Source: a phage
Assembly (NCBI GenBank): GCA_025325205.1
Contig: GCA_025325205.1_4770.1
Length of the DNA stretch: 52,259 nt
Strand: one strand, 5' to 3'
Position numbers and translations under genes: made by a program. Below are positions 2,794 through 34,143 of the stretch, piece by piece; within the stretch, counting starts at the first letter, position 1; each line of letters starts with the position of its first letter. The notes under the pieces are model-generated. The model saw nothing but the letters and a program-made list of their open reading frames with translations. It did no database searches and had not been told where the DNA came from.

Positions 2794-3131
2794 TAGAACA
2801 CTTCCTTAAACAAATCAAATTTAACATGCTCGTAGATTTTATTCAGCTGAGTTAGCTTGCGAATAAATTCTTTACTGGTATTCTCGTCAATTGCACAGGT
2901 ATCCGTCTGGATCTTCCATGTATCAGAACGCAAACGTAGCAAGAATGAACCGTTCGGATAAACCGTCTTCGCTTCTGGCATATAGTGCAGAATGCAGGAT
3001 ATTGTTCCTTCAGGTGGTATAAGAACAATATAAGTATCATTCACGTCGCTGTGACTAATAATCCAACCGCTCTGTAGTAAAGTATCGCGGAGCTGGCAAT
3101 ACATTTTCGGAATAACGATATCTTTGGCCAT
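2793..3131 (-). CDS. hypothetical protein
   Basis: 112-aa ORF, start/stop overlap with neighbours (operon-like packing). Confidence 0.35.
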   Translation of the reverse strand: MAKDIVIPKMYCQLRDTLLQSGWIISHSDVNDTYIVLIPPEGTISCILHYMPEAKTVYPNGSFLLRLRSDTWKIQTDTCAIDENTSKEFIRKLTQLNKIYEHVKFDLFKEVF

Positions 3132-3496
3132 TATTGCACTTCCACAATTAACAATTCACCATGACGTTCACGAGCGAGATTATATAAATCTTGTTTCTGC
3201 TCAATACTTAATTCGCAGTCAAGAATGGCAATATCACAATGGAAGCCACTCGTACGAATAACAGTGTCTTCATACGAGTCTCTGCGATGAGCAACCAAAC
3301 GAAGGTGGAAACGATCAAACTGTACCACAGATGACTCGCGCGACAGTTGTACACACCGAACGAACTCAGGATCTTCGCGCAACACTTCTTCGAGCTTCCT
3401 GCGATATTCGTTAGCAGGACATAAAACAAAAGCTACGCGATCGTCTTTCAGCTGTGGTCGTAAGATAGACCAGGCTTTAACTATATTCTCGTTCAT
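3131..3496 (-). CDS. hypothetical protein
   Basis: 121-aa ORF, first gene of the minus-strand block, upstream of a long noncoding region. Confidence 0.4.
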   Translation of the reverse strand: MNENIVKAWSILRPQLKDDRVAFVLCPANEYRRKLEEVLREDPEFVRCVQLSRESSVVQFDRFHLRLVAHRRDSYEDTVIRTSGFHCDIAILDCELSIEQKQDLYNLARERHGELLIVEVQ

Positions 3497-3997
3497 ATAA
3501 ACCCCTTTAACGTTAACGGAATAACTATAACAGGATACGCAAGTTGATTAACATAGCCGGCCGCAACAATTAATAACCACAGTTAACTGTCTCGTGTGCT
3601 TTAAATCTTGTGCGGCAGAATCAGTTACACATACCAGAAACCGAATCTTGTAAACTCATCTCGAGTATTTACATACGGAATTAACTTTATACGAACAATA
3701 TAGGGCAGGTGAGGTGAGGATATAAAGTGTCTAGTGACGAGATAATCTACAAACGATGAATCCTTGGCAGAGATCTAAGAGCCGCCCGCGGCGTTACTAT
3801 AACGTCCCGTGATCGTCAGTGAGGTGATTGTTACGCCATGTGACTGTTACTTGTTCTATTGTTATGTTGTTTATTGTTACACGCGTTATTATTTTTTATT
3901 TGATTAGTATACTATCTATTACAGGACTATACTATAATGTCCAGTATAATTACGTCTGTTACTATCCACCTGCCCACTATGTGCTGTCTATGTATGT

Positions 3998-7062: not shown

Positions 7063-7516
7063 CACCCAACCTCACCGAAAGCCACCTTTCACCGAAAAAT
7101 CCGACATTTATACCATAAAATAGAATCGTTTTCGGGCTACAAAAATTCAAACTCAAAAATCCGATTCACTTCGAGAGTCACTTCAACAAAAATCGCTTGC
7201 AATCCAGTTTTCTTTTGTGTTAGACCGCGTGCCCGCATTATGCGCGTGCGCGAGCTTGTGAGCGCCTCGTTGTTGCGCAACAAATATTTCTTATATTGTT
7301 CGTATATTTTCGCTTAATATACGAAATGAAAGGAGGTAAGTGCATGAAAAATAAGGTAAAAATGTGTATGTGTGTGTATTTATATAAATTTTATAAAGAT
7401 TTTTTATTTTTGAGTTGTCTACTGACGACCCCCACGAGACCCCTTTATAAATAATATAAGAAATAAATTTCGCAACATTGCCAAATTTCCCCTTTAAAAA
7501 CAAGCATTTCAGTATC

Positions 7517-7587
7517 GTGTTAATTTATTGTTAAAAACCTATAAATTGTTAATTTATATTTAAAGCATGTTAAATTTGTTAAATATA
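7517..7587. repeat. five TGTTAA(T/A)(T/A)T repeats in an AT-rich stretch
   Basis: tgttaatttat, ttgttaaaaac, ttgttaatttat, tgttaaatttg, ttgttaaatat read from sequence. Confidence 0.6.
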
Positions 7588-7616
7588 CCCTTCAGACTGT
7601 TGTAATTTTTTGCAAA

Positions 7617-7683
7617 AGCAAAAACTTTGCATATACAAAACACCGCAAAACATCACAGTTGCAAATAGCAAAAACTTTGCATA
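7617..7683 (+). promoter_or_regulatory. two copies of 17-bp element AGCAAAAACTTTGCATA (inverted-repeat core GCAAA-N3-TTTGC) overlapping candidate -35/-10 hexamers
   Basis: Copies at 7617-7633 and 7667-7683; TTGCAA/TTGCAT hexamers within; lies about 60-130 nt upstream of the first gene of the replication block (7745). Confidence 0.45.
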
Positions 7684-7744
7684 AATTAAAACTTGGCAAC
7701 TGAATTTCAAAATCATTCGATTTATTATTATCAAGGGTGAGGTT

Positions 7745-8365
7745 ATGCGCAATCGTAAAATTGAAATAACACACGCACACGTACAAGAAATGTTCGGTTA
7801 CGACGAAGTCATGTACGCCAAAGCGGTAGCCATATTGGAGCAACATAACGACAGCCTAAGTAATGTGGTCAAAGCGTGGAAGGAGGCTGGCCTCGTGTTG
7901 CGGCCGAATGCGGTCAAGACGCTGGACGATGGGCGGACGTATATGTGCTGGTCGGCTCCGATGCTGGGTATGATGTTCACTATCGACATCTACTTCGGGT
8001 ACTGGTTGTTAGATGTGGATTGTGTGATTCCGCTCGACAAGTATATGCACAGTAAAGGGTTCAACAGTTGCTTTGACGTTTGCCCTGACACGGAAGGCAA
8101 CGGTGTTATGATCCTGGGCTTTAAGTGGGTAGACGATAAGTGTGAAATACGGCCGCTGCGATATCCACGTGGTAAAGCGCGTCGTGCGTATATCGAAGAT
8201 GGTGTTGTTCGCTGGTGCAATGTAACGAAGCGTCGGATGAGCACTGACCACATTGCGTATATCAAAGATGGCCTCGTTAGACTTCAGACGAATAATAGTG
8301 GTAATGTGCAGTTACAGCAAGAATTGCAAGAACTCATTGAATACATTGATCAGTTCGGAGCGTGA
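7745..8365 (+). CDS. hypothetical protein
   Basis: 206-aa ORF with AAGGGTGAGG RBS; no motif recognised. Confidence 0.45.
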   Translation: MRNRKIEITHAHVQEMFGYDEVMYAKAVAILEQHNDSLSNVVKAWKEAGLVLRPNAVKTLDDGRTYMCWSAPMLGMMFTIDIYFGYWLLDVDCVIPLDKYMHSKGFNSCFDVCPDTEGNGVMILGFKWVDDKCEIRPLRYPRGKARRAYIEDGVVRWCNVTKRRMSTDHIAYIKDGLVRLQTNNSGNVQLQQELQELIEYIDQFGA

Positions 8366-28943: not shown

Positions 28944-29558
28944 ATGAACGAATTTACAAAGATGACAAACAGAGCAGAGATTTCGCACAGCATTGAAAAG
29001 ATTTTAAAGTTGATTGAAGGTGGGGATGATCTGCGTGAAGGCTTGGTTGAAACTCCATCACGAGTCGCTAAAGCATTTGAAACATGGTTCAGCGGTTACG
29101 ATGTTGATATTGCATCCTTGTTCAAGACCTTTGAAGATGGTGGGGAAAACTGCAATGAAATGGTTATTGTTCGTGATATTCCTGTTTACAGTCATTGCGA
29201 ACACCATATGGCCCCTATTATCGGTCACGCTGTCGTGGGGTATGTTCCTAACGGTCGCATCGTGGGGCTTAGTAAACTGTCTCGCGTGGTTGATGCTTTT
29301 AGCCGTCGCTTGCAAGTCCAGGAGCGTTTAACTAACCAGATTGCGGATGCTATCGTAGAACACTTAGACCCGAAAGCTGTGTGTGTTTACATCGATGCAA
29401 AACATATGTGTATGGAGTCGCGCGGTGTCAAGCAAGTTTGCGGAAGCTCAACCATTACTAAAGCATTCCGTGGGCGTACTGCATTGGGCGATGGTGTATT
29501 ACCTGATGTGACGGGTGACACATGGCGTCGGGAATTTCTTGAAGCGTGTAAGAAGTAA
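28944..29558 (+). CDS. folE: GTP cyclohydrolase I (FolE)
   Basis: VYSHCEHHMAPIIGHAVVGYVPNGRIVGLSKLSRVVDAFSRRLQVQERLT: conserved CEHH zinc motif and GLSKL...QVQER segment. Confidence 0.8.
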   Translation: MNEFTKMTNRAEISHSIEKILKLIEGGDDLREGLVETPSRVAKAFETWFSGYDVDIASLFKTFEDGGENCNEMVIVRDIPVYSHCEHHMAPIIGHAVVGYVPNGRIVGLSKLSRVVDAFSRRLQVQERLTNQIADAIVEHLDPKAVCVYIDAKHMCMESRGVKQVCGSSTITKAFRGRTALGDGVLPDVTGDTWRREFLEACKK

Positions 29559-29592
29559 CTGATTTGCGAATCATACATTATCTTTAATATAA

Positions 29593-29618
29593 TAAGCGCC
29601 TACGGGCGCTTATTTGTT
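29593..29618 (+). terminator. rho-independent terminator (possibly partial) between folE and dpdA
   Basis: AGCGCC-tacg-GGCGCT hairpin followed by TATTTGTT. Confidence 0.5.
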
Positions 29619-29627
29619 AGGTGAACA

Positions 29628-30581
29628 ATGCACAGAGAAGATATCAATTATACCTTTCAGATTTATATGGCTGCCGTATATACGAACAGCTATAAACCAG
29701 GAATGAACCGCTATGTTAAACTCAACGAACAAGAAAAACGTGTTGTCGAAAATATTCCAAACATTCTTGAATCCTGGCACTACGTTGGAAAGCAATCATA
29801 TGTTGATGCCATGCGTGCCGATGGGGCCAAGATATTCCTCGACTCCGGGGCGTTCTCAGCTTACACTTTGGGAGTTACGTTATCAGTTAAAGAATACTGC
29901 GATTACATCCAACGAAACATAGATATCATTCGTGTAGAAGATGGTTCACTTATGGCGTCCGTACTCGATGGTATCGGTGATCCACTTCAAACATGGCGTA
30001 ACCAGGAAGAGATGGAAGCCAGAGGTGTAAGACCTTTACCATGCTTCCACGCGGGTGAACCTTTTGAATACCTGGACCATTATGTACGAAATTATGAGTA
30101 TATCACGCTCGGTGGTCTTGTTGGAGCAAGTACGCAACAACTTCAGATATGGCTGGACAGGGTATGGGATAAACACCTTGTGGATGGTAGTGGACGCGCT
30201 AAAATTAAAGTTCACGGATTTGGTATTACATCCCGTCCACTTATGGAGCGTTACCCGTGGTACTCCTGTGACTCATCTTCCTGGATCCAATCCGCGGCGT
30301 TCGGTGCTATTGAAACGCCTAAATGGGGACCAATGCAGGTATCAGAAAAGTCCCCGTCACGTCACTATCAAGGGCAACATATCTGTAATCTTTCAGAAAT
30401 AGAACAGAACAACGTTCTACGCTACTTAGAGGAGTCAGGTTTCACATACGAGCGACTTTCAACGATATATGAATCACGAGCTGCATACAATTTATGGGCG
30501 TATGGTGTGGTCAACGCTATGATTCTTGCTAACCACAATGGGAAGTTCAACGAACGTCTTCAGGATTTATTTGACGAGTAA
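29628..30581 (+). CDS. dpdA: DNA-guanine transglycosylase (TGT-like, DpdA family) candidate
   Basis: 317 aa; KIFLDSGAFS resembles the TGT catalytic-Asp motif (DSGGFQ); last gene of the preQ0 pathway cluster; start uncertain (weak RBS). Confidence 0.55.
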   Translation: MHREDINYTFQIYMAAVYTNSYKPGMNRYVKLNEQEKRVVENIPNILESWHYVGKQSYVDAMRADGAKIFLDSGAFSAYTLGVTLSVKEYCDYIQRNIDIIRVEDGSLMASVLDGIGDPLQTWRNQEEMEARGVRPLPCFHAGEPFEYLDHYVRNYEYITLGGLVGASTQQLQIWLDRVWDKHLVDGSGRAKIKVHGFGITSRPLMERYPWYSCDSSSWIQSAAFGAIETPKWGPMQVSEKSPSRHYQGQHICNLSEIEQNNVLRYLEESGFTYERLSTIYESRAAYNLWAYGVVNAMILANHNGKFNERLQDLFDE

Positions 30582-30589
30582 GGTTACTT

Positions 30590-31582
30590 ATGGATTTACT
30601 TGATGCTTTAAAGTTTGTTCAGGGTTCTGTAGCTAAGAAAGAACTCCAGGAAGGTTTAACTCACTTCCGTATTGTTGATGGTACTGTTCGCGGGTTCAAC
30701 GGAACTATTTCATTGTGTAGTCCAGTACCACTGAACATTGACTGTACACCGAAAGCCGAACCGATGCTCAAGGCTATTGCAGCATGTGACGAAGCTGTAC
30801 AGATGACAATGTTAGCGAACGGTAAGTTGAGCATTAAGTCTGGTGGCTTTAAGGTCAGTGTAGACACTCTTCAGAAACCAACTGCGCACGTAGAGCCAGA
30901 AGGAACAATTCACGAAATAGACGGTCAGCTTTTTCTCAACGGTTTAAGCCGCGTAACGCCGTTTATAAGCGACGATGCTTCCCGCCCGTGGTCTTGCGGC
31001 GTGCTGGTAAAACAGGGCAGCATGTACGCAACCAACAACGCTAGTATTATACAATATTGGTTCGGTGCTGTATTCCCTGTCGATTGTGTTGTGCCACGTA
31101 TGGCCATCAAAGAATTATTGCGTATTAAAAAGCCACCAGTAAGAATTCAATGTACAGATACCAGTATGACATTTCACTACGAAGACGGTTGCTGGTTGCG
31201 TACCCAATTGCTGGAATTAAAGTGGCCCAACATTGACAAGATAATCGAGCGTACAGAAAAGGGGTCTGACGTCTATACGCTTGATACTGAGCTTTTTAAC
31301 TGCTTAGAGAAAATAAAACCGTTCTGTGAACGTGATGGGCGTATCTACATGGAAAATGGTGTTGTGCGCACCCATTACAACGAGCTGGATGGTGCTAGTG
31401 CAATGTTCCGTGAATCTAAGTCAATTGGCGTGTATAATATAGATCTCATTATGCAGTTGAAAGGACTTGCAACGGACTGGGATGCCTCTCGTTTCAATGA
31501 AAAGGACGAAAGGGGTCTTTCAACTCCTATTATTTTTTATGGTGAAAATCTACGTGGGGTAATTGTAGGATTTCGTCTATGA
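30590..31582 (+). CDS. DNA polymerase sliding clamp (beta-clamp/DnaN-like)
   Basis: FISDDASRPWSCGVLVKQG...YATNNASII resembles the beta-clamp domain-II signature (F-x-S-x-DE-x-RP-x-L-x-GVL ... ATDG-RLA); N-terminal GTVRGFNGTISL like the clamp GTD strand; about 330 aa. Confidence 0.5.
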   Translation: MDLLDALKFVQGSVAKKELQEGLTHFRIVDGTVRGFNGTISLCSPVPLNIDCTPKAEPMLKAIAACDEAVQMTMLANGKLSIKSGGFKVSVDTLQKPTAHVEPEGTIHEIDGQLFLNGLSRVTPFISDDASRPWSCGVLVKQGSMYATNNASIIQYWFGAVFPVDCVVPRMAIKELLRIKKPPVRIQCTDTSMTFHYEDGCWLRTQLLELKWPNIDKIIERTEKGSDVYTLDTELFNCLEKIKPFCERDGRIYMENGVVRTHYNELDGASAMFRESKSIGVYNIDLIMQLKGLATDWDASRFNEKDERGLSTPIIFYGENLRGVIVGFRL

Positions 31583-32139
31583 GAAAAGCATTGCCGTTAC
31601 CGCCGTACACTTATCTTCATGAGTGCTTCGACTATAACGAAATTACTGGTGTCCTCACATGGAAAGTGAGGCCCTCACATCATTTTAAATCCGAAAGAGC
31701 TCGAAAGATCGCAAACACACTATTTTCTGGAAAACAAGCTGGAAATGTTGTCACATGTAGTGGTAAGAAATACTTACAAGTTACAATAGATAGAAAATTA
31801 TATCTTGTTCATAGAATTTGTTATAAAATGTATTATAACAAAGAACCGACTGTAATCGATCATGACGATGGAAATGGACTTCACAACTGGATATTAAACT
31901 TAAATGATGGTACAATGTCCGACAATATGAAAAACAGGAAGATGTTAGAATGCAATTCCACTGGTGTTACTGGTGTGAGTCTGACTAAATTAGGGATGTG
32001 GAATGCACATATAATGGTTGGATATAAGGGTTATAATCTATATACAGGCCCTGATTTGTTTGAAGCCTGTTGTGCTAGAAAATCCGCTGAACTATTATAT
32101 GGTTTTAATAAAAATCACGGTAAAGAGAGAAATCTATGA
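31579..32139 (+). CDS. HNH homing endonuclease with AP2-type DNA-binding domain
   Basis: IDHDDGNGLHNWILNLN (HNH core) and GVTGVSLTKLGMWNAHIMVGYKGYNLYTGPDLFEACCARKSAEL (AP2-like); AT-rich relative to flanks; ATGA overlaps on both sides. Confidence 0.7.
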   Translation: MRKALPLPPYTYLHECFDYNEITGVLTWKVRPSHHFKSERARKIANTLFSGKQAGNVVTCSGKKYLQVTIDRKLYLVHRICYKMYYNKEPTVIDHDDGNGLHNWILNLNDGTMSDNMKNRKMLECNSTGVTGVSLTKLGMWNAHIMVGYKGYNLYTGPDLFEACCARKSAELLYGFNKNHGKERNL

Positions 32140-34109
32140 GAAAAGACGCGATTGGGTTTTTCTGGACGGATTTACCTCCCGCTAAGAAAGAGAAGAAACA
32201 GAAAGTAAAACGTCAACCAGTTGAAAGGGTATGGGAGCGCCCAGACTACCTTCCAGGTCTTGATGCAGCAATGCGTTTTGCAGCTAATGATCCGCGTATG
32301 ACAGACGGTGAATTAGTGGAGATGTATTTTGCACAAGAAACGTTCGTATACGATATCGAATGCTATAAGAACTATTTTCTTGTAGCGTTTAAAGGGGTTA
32401 AGTTCGGTAAGGTTTATTATCTAGAAATGACTGCTGGTCAAACACTTGACACGGAAAAGTATGAATGGATAATGAAGAACTTTCGTACCGTTGGTTTCAA
32501 CTCAAGAAACTACGATAATACGATGACATTCCTTGCCATTGCTGGTCTGACTGTTGACAAGCTGAAAGAAGCAAGTGACAGGATGATCCAGGAAGAGTGG
32601 GCCCCGTGGGACATTCTTAACAGTTTTGGTGTGAAGCAGTTTTGGATTGACCACATTGACGTTCAAGAAGTAGCTCCTGGCTTCGGTTCCCTAAAATTGT
32701 ACGGTGGCCGTATGCACATGCAGAAGCTCCAGGACTTACCGTTCCCACCGCATTGGGCGCTGTCCATAGAACAGATTGCTATTGTGCGCTTCTACTGTAT
32801 CAACGACCTTGATACAACAATGGCTCTGTTTAACTCACTGGAAGAGCAGATCCATCTACGTGAGATTATGAGTGAAGAGTATAAAGTAGACCTTCGCTCT
32901 AAATCTGACGCACAAATTGCAGAAGCAGTAATCCGCCATGAAATGAAGGAAATGTTGGGCTTCGTACCACAGAAGGGTATGGTGGAAGTTGGTAGAACCT
33001 TCAGATATAATCCTCCAGTGTGGTTAGGTTTCCAAACGCCACTAATGAAGTCCGTATTTCAGGTGGTGCTTGACAGTTACTTCCGAGTTGCAGAAGATGG
33101 TAAGATTAAGCAACCATCTACAATGAACTCTTTGAAGTTTACGATCAACCAGACAACTTACAACATGGGTATCGGTGGTCTACACTCTTGCGAAGAGTTA
33201 ATGGAGATTGTACCATCTGAAGATGAAGAGATGTGGGATGCTGACGTAACGTCGTACTACCCAATCTGTATCATCAACCAGCAACTGTATCCTGAACACC
33301 TGGGCCCACGCTTTATCGATATCTTCGTCAAGATCGTAGAACGACGTATTGCAGCTAAGATGGCTCACGACGATAAGACAGCACAAACTCTTAAGATCGT
33401 TATCAACGGTTCTTATGGTAAGTTTGGTTCACCGTTCTCTATCCTGTATGCACCGCACCTTATTATCCAGACTACGCTAACAGGTCAGTTAGCTTTGCTT
33501 ATGCTCATTGAGACATTGGAGCTTAACGGTATCCAGGTCGTTAGTGCTAACACAGATGGTATCGTTATTAAACCTTGCAAAGCTAAGAAGCAATTAATGA
33601 CTGATATCATTAAGTGGTGGGAAGAGACAACTGGCTTTGAAATGGAACTGAATCAGTACCTGCGTCTTAACTCTGCAAACGTTAACAACTACGTCGCAAT
33701 CAAGGCGGATGGTAAAGCCAAGCGTAAAGGTTGGTTCGCAGAGACAGGTCTTGCTAAGAACGCGGAAGGTGAGATTATTATGGATGCTGTGGTTAATCTC
33801 CTCCGTGACGGTACGCCAATTGCTAAAACTATCACAGAGTGTCAAGATATTCGTAAGTTTGTTTGTATCAAGACAGCTAACGGTGGCGCCGCGTGGAATA
33901 GTGAGCCATTAGGTAAAGTTGTTCGTTGGTATTATACAAAAGAGGAAGTACCTGAAATACTGATAGTCAAGAGTGGTGGTCGTGTTGGTAAGACAGCAGG
34001 GGGTAAACCTATGATGGAACTCACTGACCAGTTACCGCCGGATCTCAACCACGAAGTGTACATAGCTAAAGCGGAAAAATTGCTGGAAAAACTCGCATAC
34101 GCCGCTTAA
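32136..34109 (+). CDS. DNA polymerase, family B (with 3'-5' exonuclease domain)
   Basis: Exo I VYDIE, Exo II NSRNYD, Exo III YCINDLD; pol motif A DVTSYYP, motif B KIVINGSYGKFG (Kx3NSxYG), motif C ANTDGIV. Confidence 0.75.
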   Translation: MRKDAIGFFWTDLPPAKKEKKQKVKRQPVERVWERPDYLPGLDAAMRFAANDPRMTDGELVEMYFAQETFVYDIECYKNYFLVAFKGVKFGKVYYLEMTAGQTLDTEKYEWIMKNFRTVGFNSRNYDNTMTFLAIAGLTVDKLKEASDRMIQEEWAPWDILNSFGVKQFWIDHIDVQEVAPGFGSLKLYGGRMHMQKLQDLPFPPHWALSIEQIAIVRFYCINDLDTTMALFNSLEEQIHLREIMSEEYKVDLRSKSDAQIAEAVIRHEMKEMLGFVPQKGMVEVGRTFRYNPPVWLGFQTPLMKSVFQVVLDSYFRVAEDGKIKQPSTMNSLKFTINQTTYNMGIGGLHSCEELMEIVPSEDEEMWDADVTSYYPICIINQQLYPEHLGPRFIDIFVKIVERRIAAKMAHDDKTAQTLKIVINGSYGKFGSPFSILYAPHLIIQTTLTGQLALLMLIETLELNGIQVVSANTDGIVIKPCKAKKQLMTDIIKWWEETTGFEMELNQYLRLNSANVNNYVAIKADGKAKRKGWFAETGLAKNAEGEIIMDAVVNLLRDGTPIAKTITECQDIRKFVCIKTANGGAAWNSEPLGKVVRWYYTKEEVPEILIVKSGGRVGKTAGGKPMMELTDQLPPDLNHEVYIAKAEKLLEKLAYAA

Positions 34110-34110
34110 T

Positions 34111-34143
34111 AAAAAGTGGGCCAATACGTTTGTACTGGCCCAC
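34111..34143 (-). terminator. rho-independent terminator for the minus-strand late transcript (convergent junction)
   Basis: GTGGGCCA ... TGGCCCAC stem (34116-34143) with A-run on plus strand (T-run on minus) at 34111-34115. Confidence 0.5.

Follow-up and report, generated by a model that had tools for sequence, protein, structure and literature searches.

A probable free-standing HNH-AP2 homing endonuclease gene at the clamp-polymerase junction of a Nonagvirus phage

A compositionally foreign gene lies between the clamp and polymerase genes

This study concerns a small gene wedged between two replication genes of a phage, in a stretch of 52,259 nucleotides (nt) (contig GCA_025325205.1_4770.1 of NCBI GenBank assembly GCA_025325205.1) that was analyzed at full length and is called the window here. 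Sequence comparison places the window in Nonagvirus (Queuovirinae, 9g-like) as a phage genome, and the known members of the genus are ~94 to 95% identical to it. The gene, an open reading frame (ORF) of 186 amino acids (aa) with an ATG start at 31579..32139 on the plus strand, was taken from the ORF list, matches PHROG 99, and is probably a free-standing homing endonuclease gene. Its upstream neighbor encodes a sliding clamp, or DNA polymerase processivity factor (30590..31582, plus strand; 330 aa; PHROG 947, E = 8.5e-82), and its downstream neighbor encodes a family-B DNA polymerase (32136..34109, plus strand; 657 aa; PHROG 1252, E = 1.4e-228). The polymerase matches the family-B enzyme 1s5j (E = 1.4e-8); the clamp protein matches the beta sliding clamp 8dt6 weakly (E = 0.2), and its orthologues in 9g, SE1, and JenP1 carry the processivity factor annotation.

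A sequence-only reading of this DNA had described the ORF as overlapping each flanking gene by an ATGA and as richer in AT than both. The two overlaps were found, with the clamp TGA at 31580-31582 and the polymerase ATG at 32136, and the GC contents agree: 35.5% in the endonuclease ORF (29.9% at third codon positions), against 43.8% (41.1%) in the clamp gene and 43.9% (45.0%) in the polymerase gene. Among all 561-base pair (bp) segments of the 52-kb sequence, the ORF ranks in the lowest 1.8% for GC content, and it is compositionally foreign. A tblastn search of the window with the protein returned only the gene itself, so no paralogue is present there, and no Rfam family, group I and II introns included, was detected in 30500-33000 at E ≤ 1. 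The endonuclease is a separate ORF between two complete genes, which sets it outside the intron- and intein-encoded classes.

Because of the ATGA overlaps, we argue for translational coupling within an operon. The clamp 3' end provides both an AGGA ribosome-binding site and the stop/start overlap for the endonuclease gene, and promoter and terminator scans around this gene stayed at chance level. In carrier genomes, the polymerase no longer has the clamp-borne AGGA (window 32100-32135) and relies on a weaker purine-rich AAAGAGAGAAATCT in the endonuclease 3' end together with stop/start coupling to the endonuclease gene; with a weaker ribosome-binding site in carriers, the element may therefore alter polymerase expression.

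The protein has predicted HNH and AP2 domains

The PHROG 99 family, annotated as HNH endonuclease, covers residues 6 to 184 of the protein with an E value of 2e-49. The predicted HNH (His-Me finger) nuclease domain occupies approximately residues 50 to 123 (31726..31947, plus strand), and an AP2-type DNA-binding domain is predicted at approximately residues 127 to 175 (31957..32103, plus strand). The HNH motif IDHDDGNGLHNWILNL corresponds to residues 93 to 108, and the extended pattern IDHDDGNGLHNWILNL...DN spans residues 93 to 116; the predicted catalytic D94/H95 pair is encoded at 31858-31863 and the predicted metal ligand N116 at 31924-31926. In a large protein collection, we found 26 relatives, most of which carry PF13392 and three of which (P0011, P0023, and P0026) carry PF00847, and homologues with 35 to 45% identity to the endonuclease carry PF13392. 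In an alignment of 24 homologues, H95, N103, L108, and N116 are invariant, and D94, N107, and N119 are nearly so.

A PDB sequence search with the single protein gave nothing useful, and a family profile was required. The 24-sequence profile matched I-HmuI (1u3e) with an E value of 5.4e-9, aligning D74/H75/N83/N87/N96 of I-HmuI with D94/H95/N103/N107/N116 of the endonuclease, while the AP2 domains of plant TEM1 and WRI1 were matched at E = 0.03 only. The AlphaFold2 model built from the alignment has a mean predicted local distance difference test (pLDDT) score of 92.6 and a predicted template modeling (pTM) score of 0.79. By this alignment with I-HmuI, the general-base His preceded by Asp and the conserved Asn residues are in place. 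In the model, the HNH domain adopts the beta-beta-alpha metal-finger fold, and the AP2 fold appears as a three-stranded antiparallel sheet (133-135, 141-147, 150-157) packed against a C-terminal helix (160-174). Because the PHROG match, the family alignment, the I-HmuI and AP2 profile matches, and the model all agree, the HNH core and AP2-like segment claimed by the sequence-only reading are confirmed at the level of sequence and predicted structure, and the set of predicted catalytic residues appears intact.

Between the window and SE1 copies, the ratio of nonsynonymous to synonymous divergence (dN/dS) is 0.08, with a dS of 0.167, which indicates purifying selection on the protein. The ORF is full length in all but one of the 28 members of its 90% identity cluster, many of which lie on 55- to 61-kb contigs; an exact look-up of the window's protein sequence returned no record.

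The gene is an insertion polymorphism between 13-bp direct repeats

Among 16 related isolate Nonagvirus phages, the endonuclease gene is present in SE1 and SE1Kor only; it is further found in the window and in several metagenomic Nonagvirus contigs. The other 14 isolates show an exact 557-bp gap at the junction, and further metagenomic contigs are empty as well. In a megablast search with the clamp gene, the ORF, and the polymerase gene as one query, coverage reached 100% only in SE1 and SE1Kor and was 84 to 85%, in two pieces, in 12 phages (9g, JenP1, JenP2, JenK1, BRET, ChristophMerian, SP8, FritzHoffmann, ESCO3, HdSG1, HdK1, and PD328). In these 12 empty phages, the clamp stop and the polymerase start share the same ATGA.

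Repeat search and alignment revealed that the insert measures exactly 557 bp between two perfect 13-bp direct repeats, TCTATGAGAAAAG, of which empty genomes have one copy. The left repeat (31576..31588, plus strand) contains the clamp stop and the endonuclease start (M-R-K), and the right repeat (32133..32145, plus strand), at a spacing of 557, contains the endonuclease stop and the polymerase start (M-R-K). The single copy in empty genomes is the clamp-stop/polymerase-start junction itself. It follows from this arrangement that the endonuclease begins with the first codons of the polymerase (M-R-K) behind the clamp AGGA and that the polymerase start is present a second time, at the 3' end of the element.

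Such sporadic presence and absence at one site among close relatives is what is expected of a homing gene. The sequence-only reading had proposed comparing related phages for the presence of the ORF at this junction and would have been contradicted by universal conservation with matching composition; the comparison gave the 557-bp gap in 14 of 16 isolates, and the gene is patchy, with a GC content of 35.5% against ~44% in the flanks.

Additional loci came from metagenomes. A degenerate 24-mer scan of metagenomes gave 11 relevant loci; in IMG/VR, the matches to 17-mers of the two alleles were mostly due to chance, and L052 and L061 were the only new relevant loci. A search of metagenome contigs by the polymerase N terminus found no loci with what were poorly chosen patterns, and an IMG/VR search with another polymerase segment gave no new loci.

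Endonuclease alleles and flanking genes have different histories

Three allele groups, P0001, P0002, and P0003, were distinguished by their aa identity to the window protein (95%, 83%, and 75%, respectively), and all three sit at the clamp-polymerase junction of Queuovirinae-like contigs. The P0002 allele is 99.1 to 99.8% identical in nt on six contigs from six samples, whereas the clamp and polymerase flanks are only 72 to 77% identical between its two backgrounds. The near identity starts exactly at the endonuclease ATG and stops at polymerase nt 34. The opposite pattern is seen in L013 and L014, whose flanks are 94 to 95% identical while their endonuclease alleles share only 66% identity, which points to allele replacement at one site.

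The L112 locus carries a window-type allele (31 of 561 nt differ). Its upstream 131 nt have 2 differences to L014 and 46 to the window; its polymerase nt 1 to 62 are identical to the window, and beyond them it resembles L014. This mosaic therefore shows that the allele lineage of the window was copied into a genome that is ~25 to 30% diverged in the flanking genes, and the transfer brought 55 to 62 nt of donor polymerase sequence and 0 nt of clamp sequence. The largest co-conversion tract of polymerase 5' sequence thus maps to 32136..32197 (plus strand), with 34 nt for P0002 and 55 to 62 nt for the window-type allele in L112. Gene histories discordant with those of the flanks, as in P0002 and L112, and co-conversion coupled with a target-site variant in carriers are both expected of homing genes.

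Over the first 100 nt of the polymerase gene, the window, SE1, and SP8 are identical; elsewhere in the clamp and polymerase genes, empty phages are at least as close to the window and to SE1 as these two are to each other. The dS values between the window and SE1 are 0.167 for the endonuclease, 0.126 for the clamp, and 0.221 for the polymerase, and the three alleles at the one site are only 66 to 73% identical in nt. Because of the window/SE1 divergence and the distance among these alleles, the junction has been colonized for a long time. We conclude that the endonuclease gene circulates in the phage population. The sequence-only reading had spoken of a relatively recent mobile insertion: mobility holds, given the P0002 and L112 transfers, the foreign GC content, and the patchy distribution, but recency is not supported for the window copy, whose dS is close to that of its flanks.

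A polymerase 5' variant accompanies the gene

The densest cluster of differences lies at polymerase nt 12 to 32 (codons 4 to 11; 32147..32167, plus strand), where a variant associated with gene-bearing alleles may confer immunity. Seven substitutions separate it from the empty alleles (32147, 32150, 32156, 32159, 32162, 32166, and 32167); five are synonymous, and two together change codon 11 from E to T (E11T). In Nonagvirus, the empty allele reads GAT GCT ATT GGT TTC TTT TGG GAG and the gene-bearing allele GAC GCG ATT GGG TTT TTC TGG ACG, and polymerase nt 21 to 33 read GGTTTCTTTTGGGAG and GGGTTTTTCTGGACG in the two allele types. The sequence around nt 12 to 32 is otherwise almost invariant. 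In every pairing of a carrier with an empty E-type locus, this is the densest 21-nt cluster in the 2,963-nt clamp and polymerase alignment (binomial P of 3e-6 to 2e-4).

Codon 11 encodes T or N in all 18 gene-bearing loci and E in none (0/18), against E in 23 of the 26 empty loci and T or N in the other 3. Polymerase codons 7 to 12 accordingly read GFFW-T/N-D in carriers and GFFW-E-D in 23/26 empty loci; at the nt level, carriers have GGGTTTTTCTGGAC(G/T)GA, with GGTTTTTTCTGGAATGA in L013, and the 23 empty loci have GGTTTCTTTTGGGA(G/A)GA. Gene presence is associated with the codon 11 allele at a Fisher P of 1.3e-9, and an earlier, smaller tally gave per-clade values of 0.005 and 0.024, P values that are indicative only because the loci are phylogenetically non-independent and include a few duplicates. 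In the sister clade, GGTTTCTTTTGGGAAGA occurs in empty or otherwise occupied loci (L012, L061, and L109) and GGGTTTTTCTGGACGGA in P0002-carrying loci. The sequence-only reading had placed the likely target in polymerase or clamp alleles of phages that lack the gene, and the tight association between gene presence and the 5' variant (18/18 versus 3/26) speaks for the polymerase alleles.

The peptide K-D-A-I-G-F-F-W-x-D is invariant across clades save for codon 11 (E, T, N, A, or R in more distant relatives); immunity would therefore have been bought by synonymous changes plus one tolerant codon. Such a target choice fits the usual habit of homing endonucleases of targeting conserved coding sequence. 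On the basis of the tract ends (nt 34, ~55, and 55 to 62) and the variant positions, the recognition and cleavage region is likely to lie at polymerase nt ~12 to 60.

The sensitive Nonagvirus allele also contains a perfect inverted repeat, GGGAGG-ATTTA-CCTCCC (window equivalent 32164-32180, polymerase nt 29 to 45), whose left arm is GGACGG in the window allele. The GGGAGG-N5-CCTCCC palindrome was set aside as a recognition element, since the other clade's sensitive allele does not contain it; an effect on translation or on local structure is possible.

Other features of the junction and the surrounding genes

The clamp-polymerase junction is a general hotspot for small accessory genes. In a Klebsiella-phage-like sister clade, it holds a conserved 64-aa Cys-rich ORF (MSKCCFYCGRE...CDDC), zinc-ribbon-like and with no Pfam match (L012:2289-2911; L013:3810-4000; L052:12809-12999; L061:5273-5463; and 5' of the polymerase in L109), which is missing where the P0002 allele directly adjoins the clamp. 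Further unrelated junction ORFs are one of 143 aa in vB_Kpn2-P2 and one of ~80 aa in L109. We asked whether the two junction ORFs of Klebsiella phage vB_Kpn2-P2 could be a degraded endonuclease and rejected the idea, as they have no endonuclease similarity and no Pfam family.

On the 5' side of the clamp, the window encodes a DpdA-like transglycosylase (ending at 30581) and GTP cyclohydrolase I, the 7-deazaguanine DNA-modification module typical of 9g-like phages. The gene 5' of the DpdA-like gene (window 28944-29627) varies among close relatives: it is FolE (GTP cyclohydrolase I) in the window, 9g, BRET, JenP2, and JenK1, and it is replaced in SE1, JenP1, SP8, and FritzHoffmann by a 162-aa hypothetical ORF that overlaps the dpdA start and has no Pfam family (regions compared, L001:58-546, L003:58-546, L007:58-546, and L008:52-546). 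This looks like a module swap within the DNA-modification cluster. Some Nonagvirus genomes have a second, distinct HNH_3 ORF of 179 aa directly 5' of the clamp (L117:1-516; L110:1-186, phage ESCO3, record 2994-3533), at the position taken up by the DpdA-like gene in the window, and the replication module would have there a further site of endonuclease insertion.

Just past the polymerase stop, a strong terminator-like hairpin on the minus strand (34116-34143; 12-bp stem, 7 GC pairs, T-run) separates the convergent replication genes from the minus-strand genes, and terminators are annotated at the matching place in HdSG1, HdK1, and SP8. The two most AT-rich stretches of the window, at ~7231-7850 and ~36150-36800, have ~30 to 31% GC, below that of the endonuclease gene. 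The former, possibly an origin or a regulatory region, is devoid of long ORFs up to the gene that begins at 7745; the latter spans intergenic space and the 3' end of a 727-aa tail-fibre-like gene (minus strand, 36385-38568).

Discussion

Taken as a whole, the data are probably best explained by a free-standing HNH-AP2 homing endonuclease gene at the clamp-polymerase junction, with a target in the polymerase 5' region and immunity of carriers. During co-infection, the enzyme would be translated through coupling to the clamp gene, and its AP2 domain and N-terminal region would bind the polymerase segment coding for K-D-A-I-G-F-F-W-E-D in genomes without the gene. The HNH domain would then nick or cut within polymerase nt ~12 to 60, that is, 2 to 50 nt 3' of the insertion point, and recombinational repair off the gene-bearing genome would copy the gene together with the adjacent variant polymerase sequence. 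This variant, with its five synonymous changes and E11T, would protect carriers from their own enzyme. Empty-but-immune alleles such as those of SP8, FritzHoffmann, and L052 would result where repair tracts stay short or the gene is deleted between the 13-bp repeats. These steps agree with the behavior of free-standing endonucleases, which cleave at a distance from the site of insertion and co-convert the flanks as they spread (PMC2988022), and phage HNH+AP2 endonuclease genes adjoin DNA polymerase genes in 29% of neighborhoods (PMC10448857).

Several observations weigh against this explanation. The protein scores 18.3 bits against Pfam HNH_3 (PF13392), under the 24.8-bit cut-off, and has no match to Pfam AP2 (PF00847) at E < 0.1; cleavage by the enzyme, its position, and the choice between a nick and a double-strand break are predicted activities. 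Within Nonagvirus, the flanks are ~95% alike, so that transfer tracts cannot be read directly there, and the gene differs by ~4% in nt between the window and SE1, a divergence comparable with that of the flanks; the window copy may therefore have been inherited vertically for some time. The loci counted for the codon 11 association are phylogenetically non-independent, with duplicates over 2 kb (L113 = L114, L117 = L119), and part of that association could be linkage to a single ancestral insertion per allele. Finally, three empty loci, SP8, FritzHoffmann, and L052, have an 'immune' T/N-type allele. SP8 is empty and identical to the window over polymerase nt 1 to 100, a state that fits deletion between the 13-bp repeats or repair primed at the second copy of the repeat. 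In FritzHoffmann, nt 12 and 15 are of the recipient type and nt 21 to 33 of the donor type, with the ACT codon of carriers L113 to L119, a pattern that looks like a short conversion tract begun downstream and ended before the gene; L052 has the P0002-linked polymerase start ATGCGTAAAG... without the endonuclease gene.

Could the gene instead be an old resident, inherited vertically and lost repeatedly and precisely between the 13-bp repeats, with a window copy that is no longer mobile? A perfect 13-bp repeat would permit such excision, SP8 is empty yet window-identical over polymerase nt 1 to 100, and the window/SE1 endonuclease dS of 0.17 is like that of the flanks. We nevertheless consider this unlikely, since L112 has a window-type lineage in a foreign background with a sharp switch in flank identity, P0002 is ~99.5% identical across flanks of 72 to 77% identity, and the window and SE1 are not nearest mutual relatives in the flanks beyond the 100-nt tract; strong purifying selection on a gene that the phage can dispense with is, moreover, the expectation of continued homing. 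It is less probable still that the protein is what is left of a homing endonuclease, catalytically dead and in decay, which has become fixed in its lineage and has lost its targets, and we give this reading very little weight: although the HNH_3 score is below threshold and this clade has HNW and NLN in place of the canonical NNR and NLR, all but one of the 28 cluster members have a full-length ORF, dN/dS is 0.08, D94/H95/N103/N116 are kept, the AlphaFold2 model is confident, and susceptible E-type targets remain the majority in the sampled population.

A domesticated protein, acting as an AP2 regulator, a competitor-excluding nuclease, or a replication accessory factor, with the junction merely a hotspot for accessory genes, is also quite improbable in our view. 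The unrelated small ORFs at the same junction in the Klebsiella-phage-like clade would suit it, other phages have turned AP2 domains of homing-endonuclease origin into repressors (bioRxiv 10.64898/2026.02.23.707548), and homing and domesticated nucleases are inseparable by bioinformatics alone (PMC10448857). However, the gene is absent in most close relatives and is therefore not needed for replication, the predicted catalytic residues of the nuclease are invariant, and site-specific spread, co-converted polymerase sequence, and linked target variants are signatures of homing and not of regulation; exclusion of competitors' markers would be a by-product of homing anyway.

Within the homing explanation, two further ideas concern the mechanism. 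All three alleles open with the first 10 nt of the polymerase gene (ATGAGRAAAG, M-R-K) and rebuild the polymerase start at their 3' end. We tentatively suggest, as a possibility with odds against it, that the element captured the polymerase initiation region and that the 10- to 13-nt duplication serves as an upstream recombination anchor in microhomology-primed, synthesis-dependent repair. If so, entry into ~25% diverged clamp backgrounds with zero upstream co-conversion would be explained, and annealing to the second repeat copy would account for the empty-but-immune alleles of SP8 and L052. A further possibility is that the enzyme must recognize DNA whose guanines are partly 7-deazaguanine (archaeosine-type), as FolE and DpdA are encoded next door.

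Several known systems resemble this element. I-HmuI of Bacillus phage SPO1 (PDB 1u3e), I-HmuII, I-BasI, and I-TwoI are HNH homing endonucleases tied to phage DNA polymerase genes. The gene for I-HmuI, a nickase and the closest relative with a solved structure, lies within a group I intron, whereas the window gene stands by itself between its two neighbors. The two proteins also have different DNA-binding modules at the C terminus: the window protein has an AP2 domain, which I-HmuI, to our knowledge, lacks. The same arrangement of N-terminal HNH and C-terminal AP2 is found in endonucleases of phages, cyanobacteria, and protists, including the 'IPA-HNH' of Vibrio phage ICP1, a class whose HNH domain is likewise too divergent for the Pfam HNH_3 threshold and which often lies beside DNA polymerase genes (PMC10448857). 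A tblastn search located the endonuclease family in 2,155 phage records, among which Vibrio, Salmonella, Escherichia, and Klebsiella phages are numerous, and identity to phages beyond SE1 and SE1Kor is at most 44%. The HNH enzyme MobE and the GIY-YIG enzymes SegG and SegB of T4 are likewise free-standing between conserved essential genes, a case of 'intronless homing'; they cleave the neighboring gene, spread by double-strand-break repair, co-convert the flanks, and exclude the markers of relatives (PMC2988022, PMC2790892). MobE has a different C-terminal region, however, and the Seg enzymes belong to a different nuclease family, and the window element differs from the T4 systems in its one-sided co-conversion (0 nt upstream, 34 to 62 nt downstream) and its duplicated target-gene start. 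The orthologue at the same junction is gp86 of Salmonella phage SE1 (YP_009613615.1). Its identity to the window gene is 97.3% in aa and 95.9% in nt; the 13-bp repeats and the polymerase 5' variant are shared with the window, and the flanks are mosaic relative to it. SE1 gp86 is annotated as 'hypothetical protein', bears the UniRef name 'HNH endonuclease', and has neither a functional annotation nor a study. We found no report of cleavage sites or homing for this lineage, and the series of three alleles with empty-sensitive and empty-immune sites is specific to Queuovirinae.

The window endonuclease is a new, uncharacterized member of the known HNH-AP2 free-standing homing endonucleases and, as such, a routine selfish gene. 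Its value lies in a natural experiment on phage homing, in which empty-sensitive, occupied-immune (with three diverged alleles), empty-immune, and otherwise occupied sites are found at one Queuovirinae junction. Transfer tracts can be mapped there to the nucleotide, giving a testable prediction of the recognition region at polymerase nt ~12 to 60, and the natural allele series offers ready substrates for an enzyme class, HNH-AP2, with very little biochemistry. For the phylogeny or engineering of 9g-like phages, the clamp-polymerase junction is flagged as a recombination hotspot.

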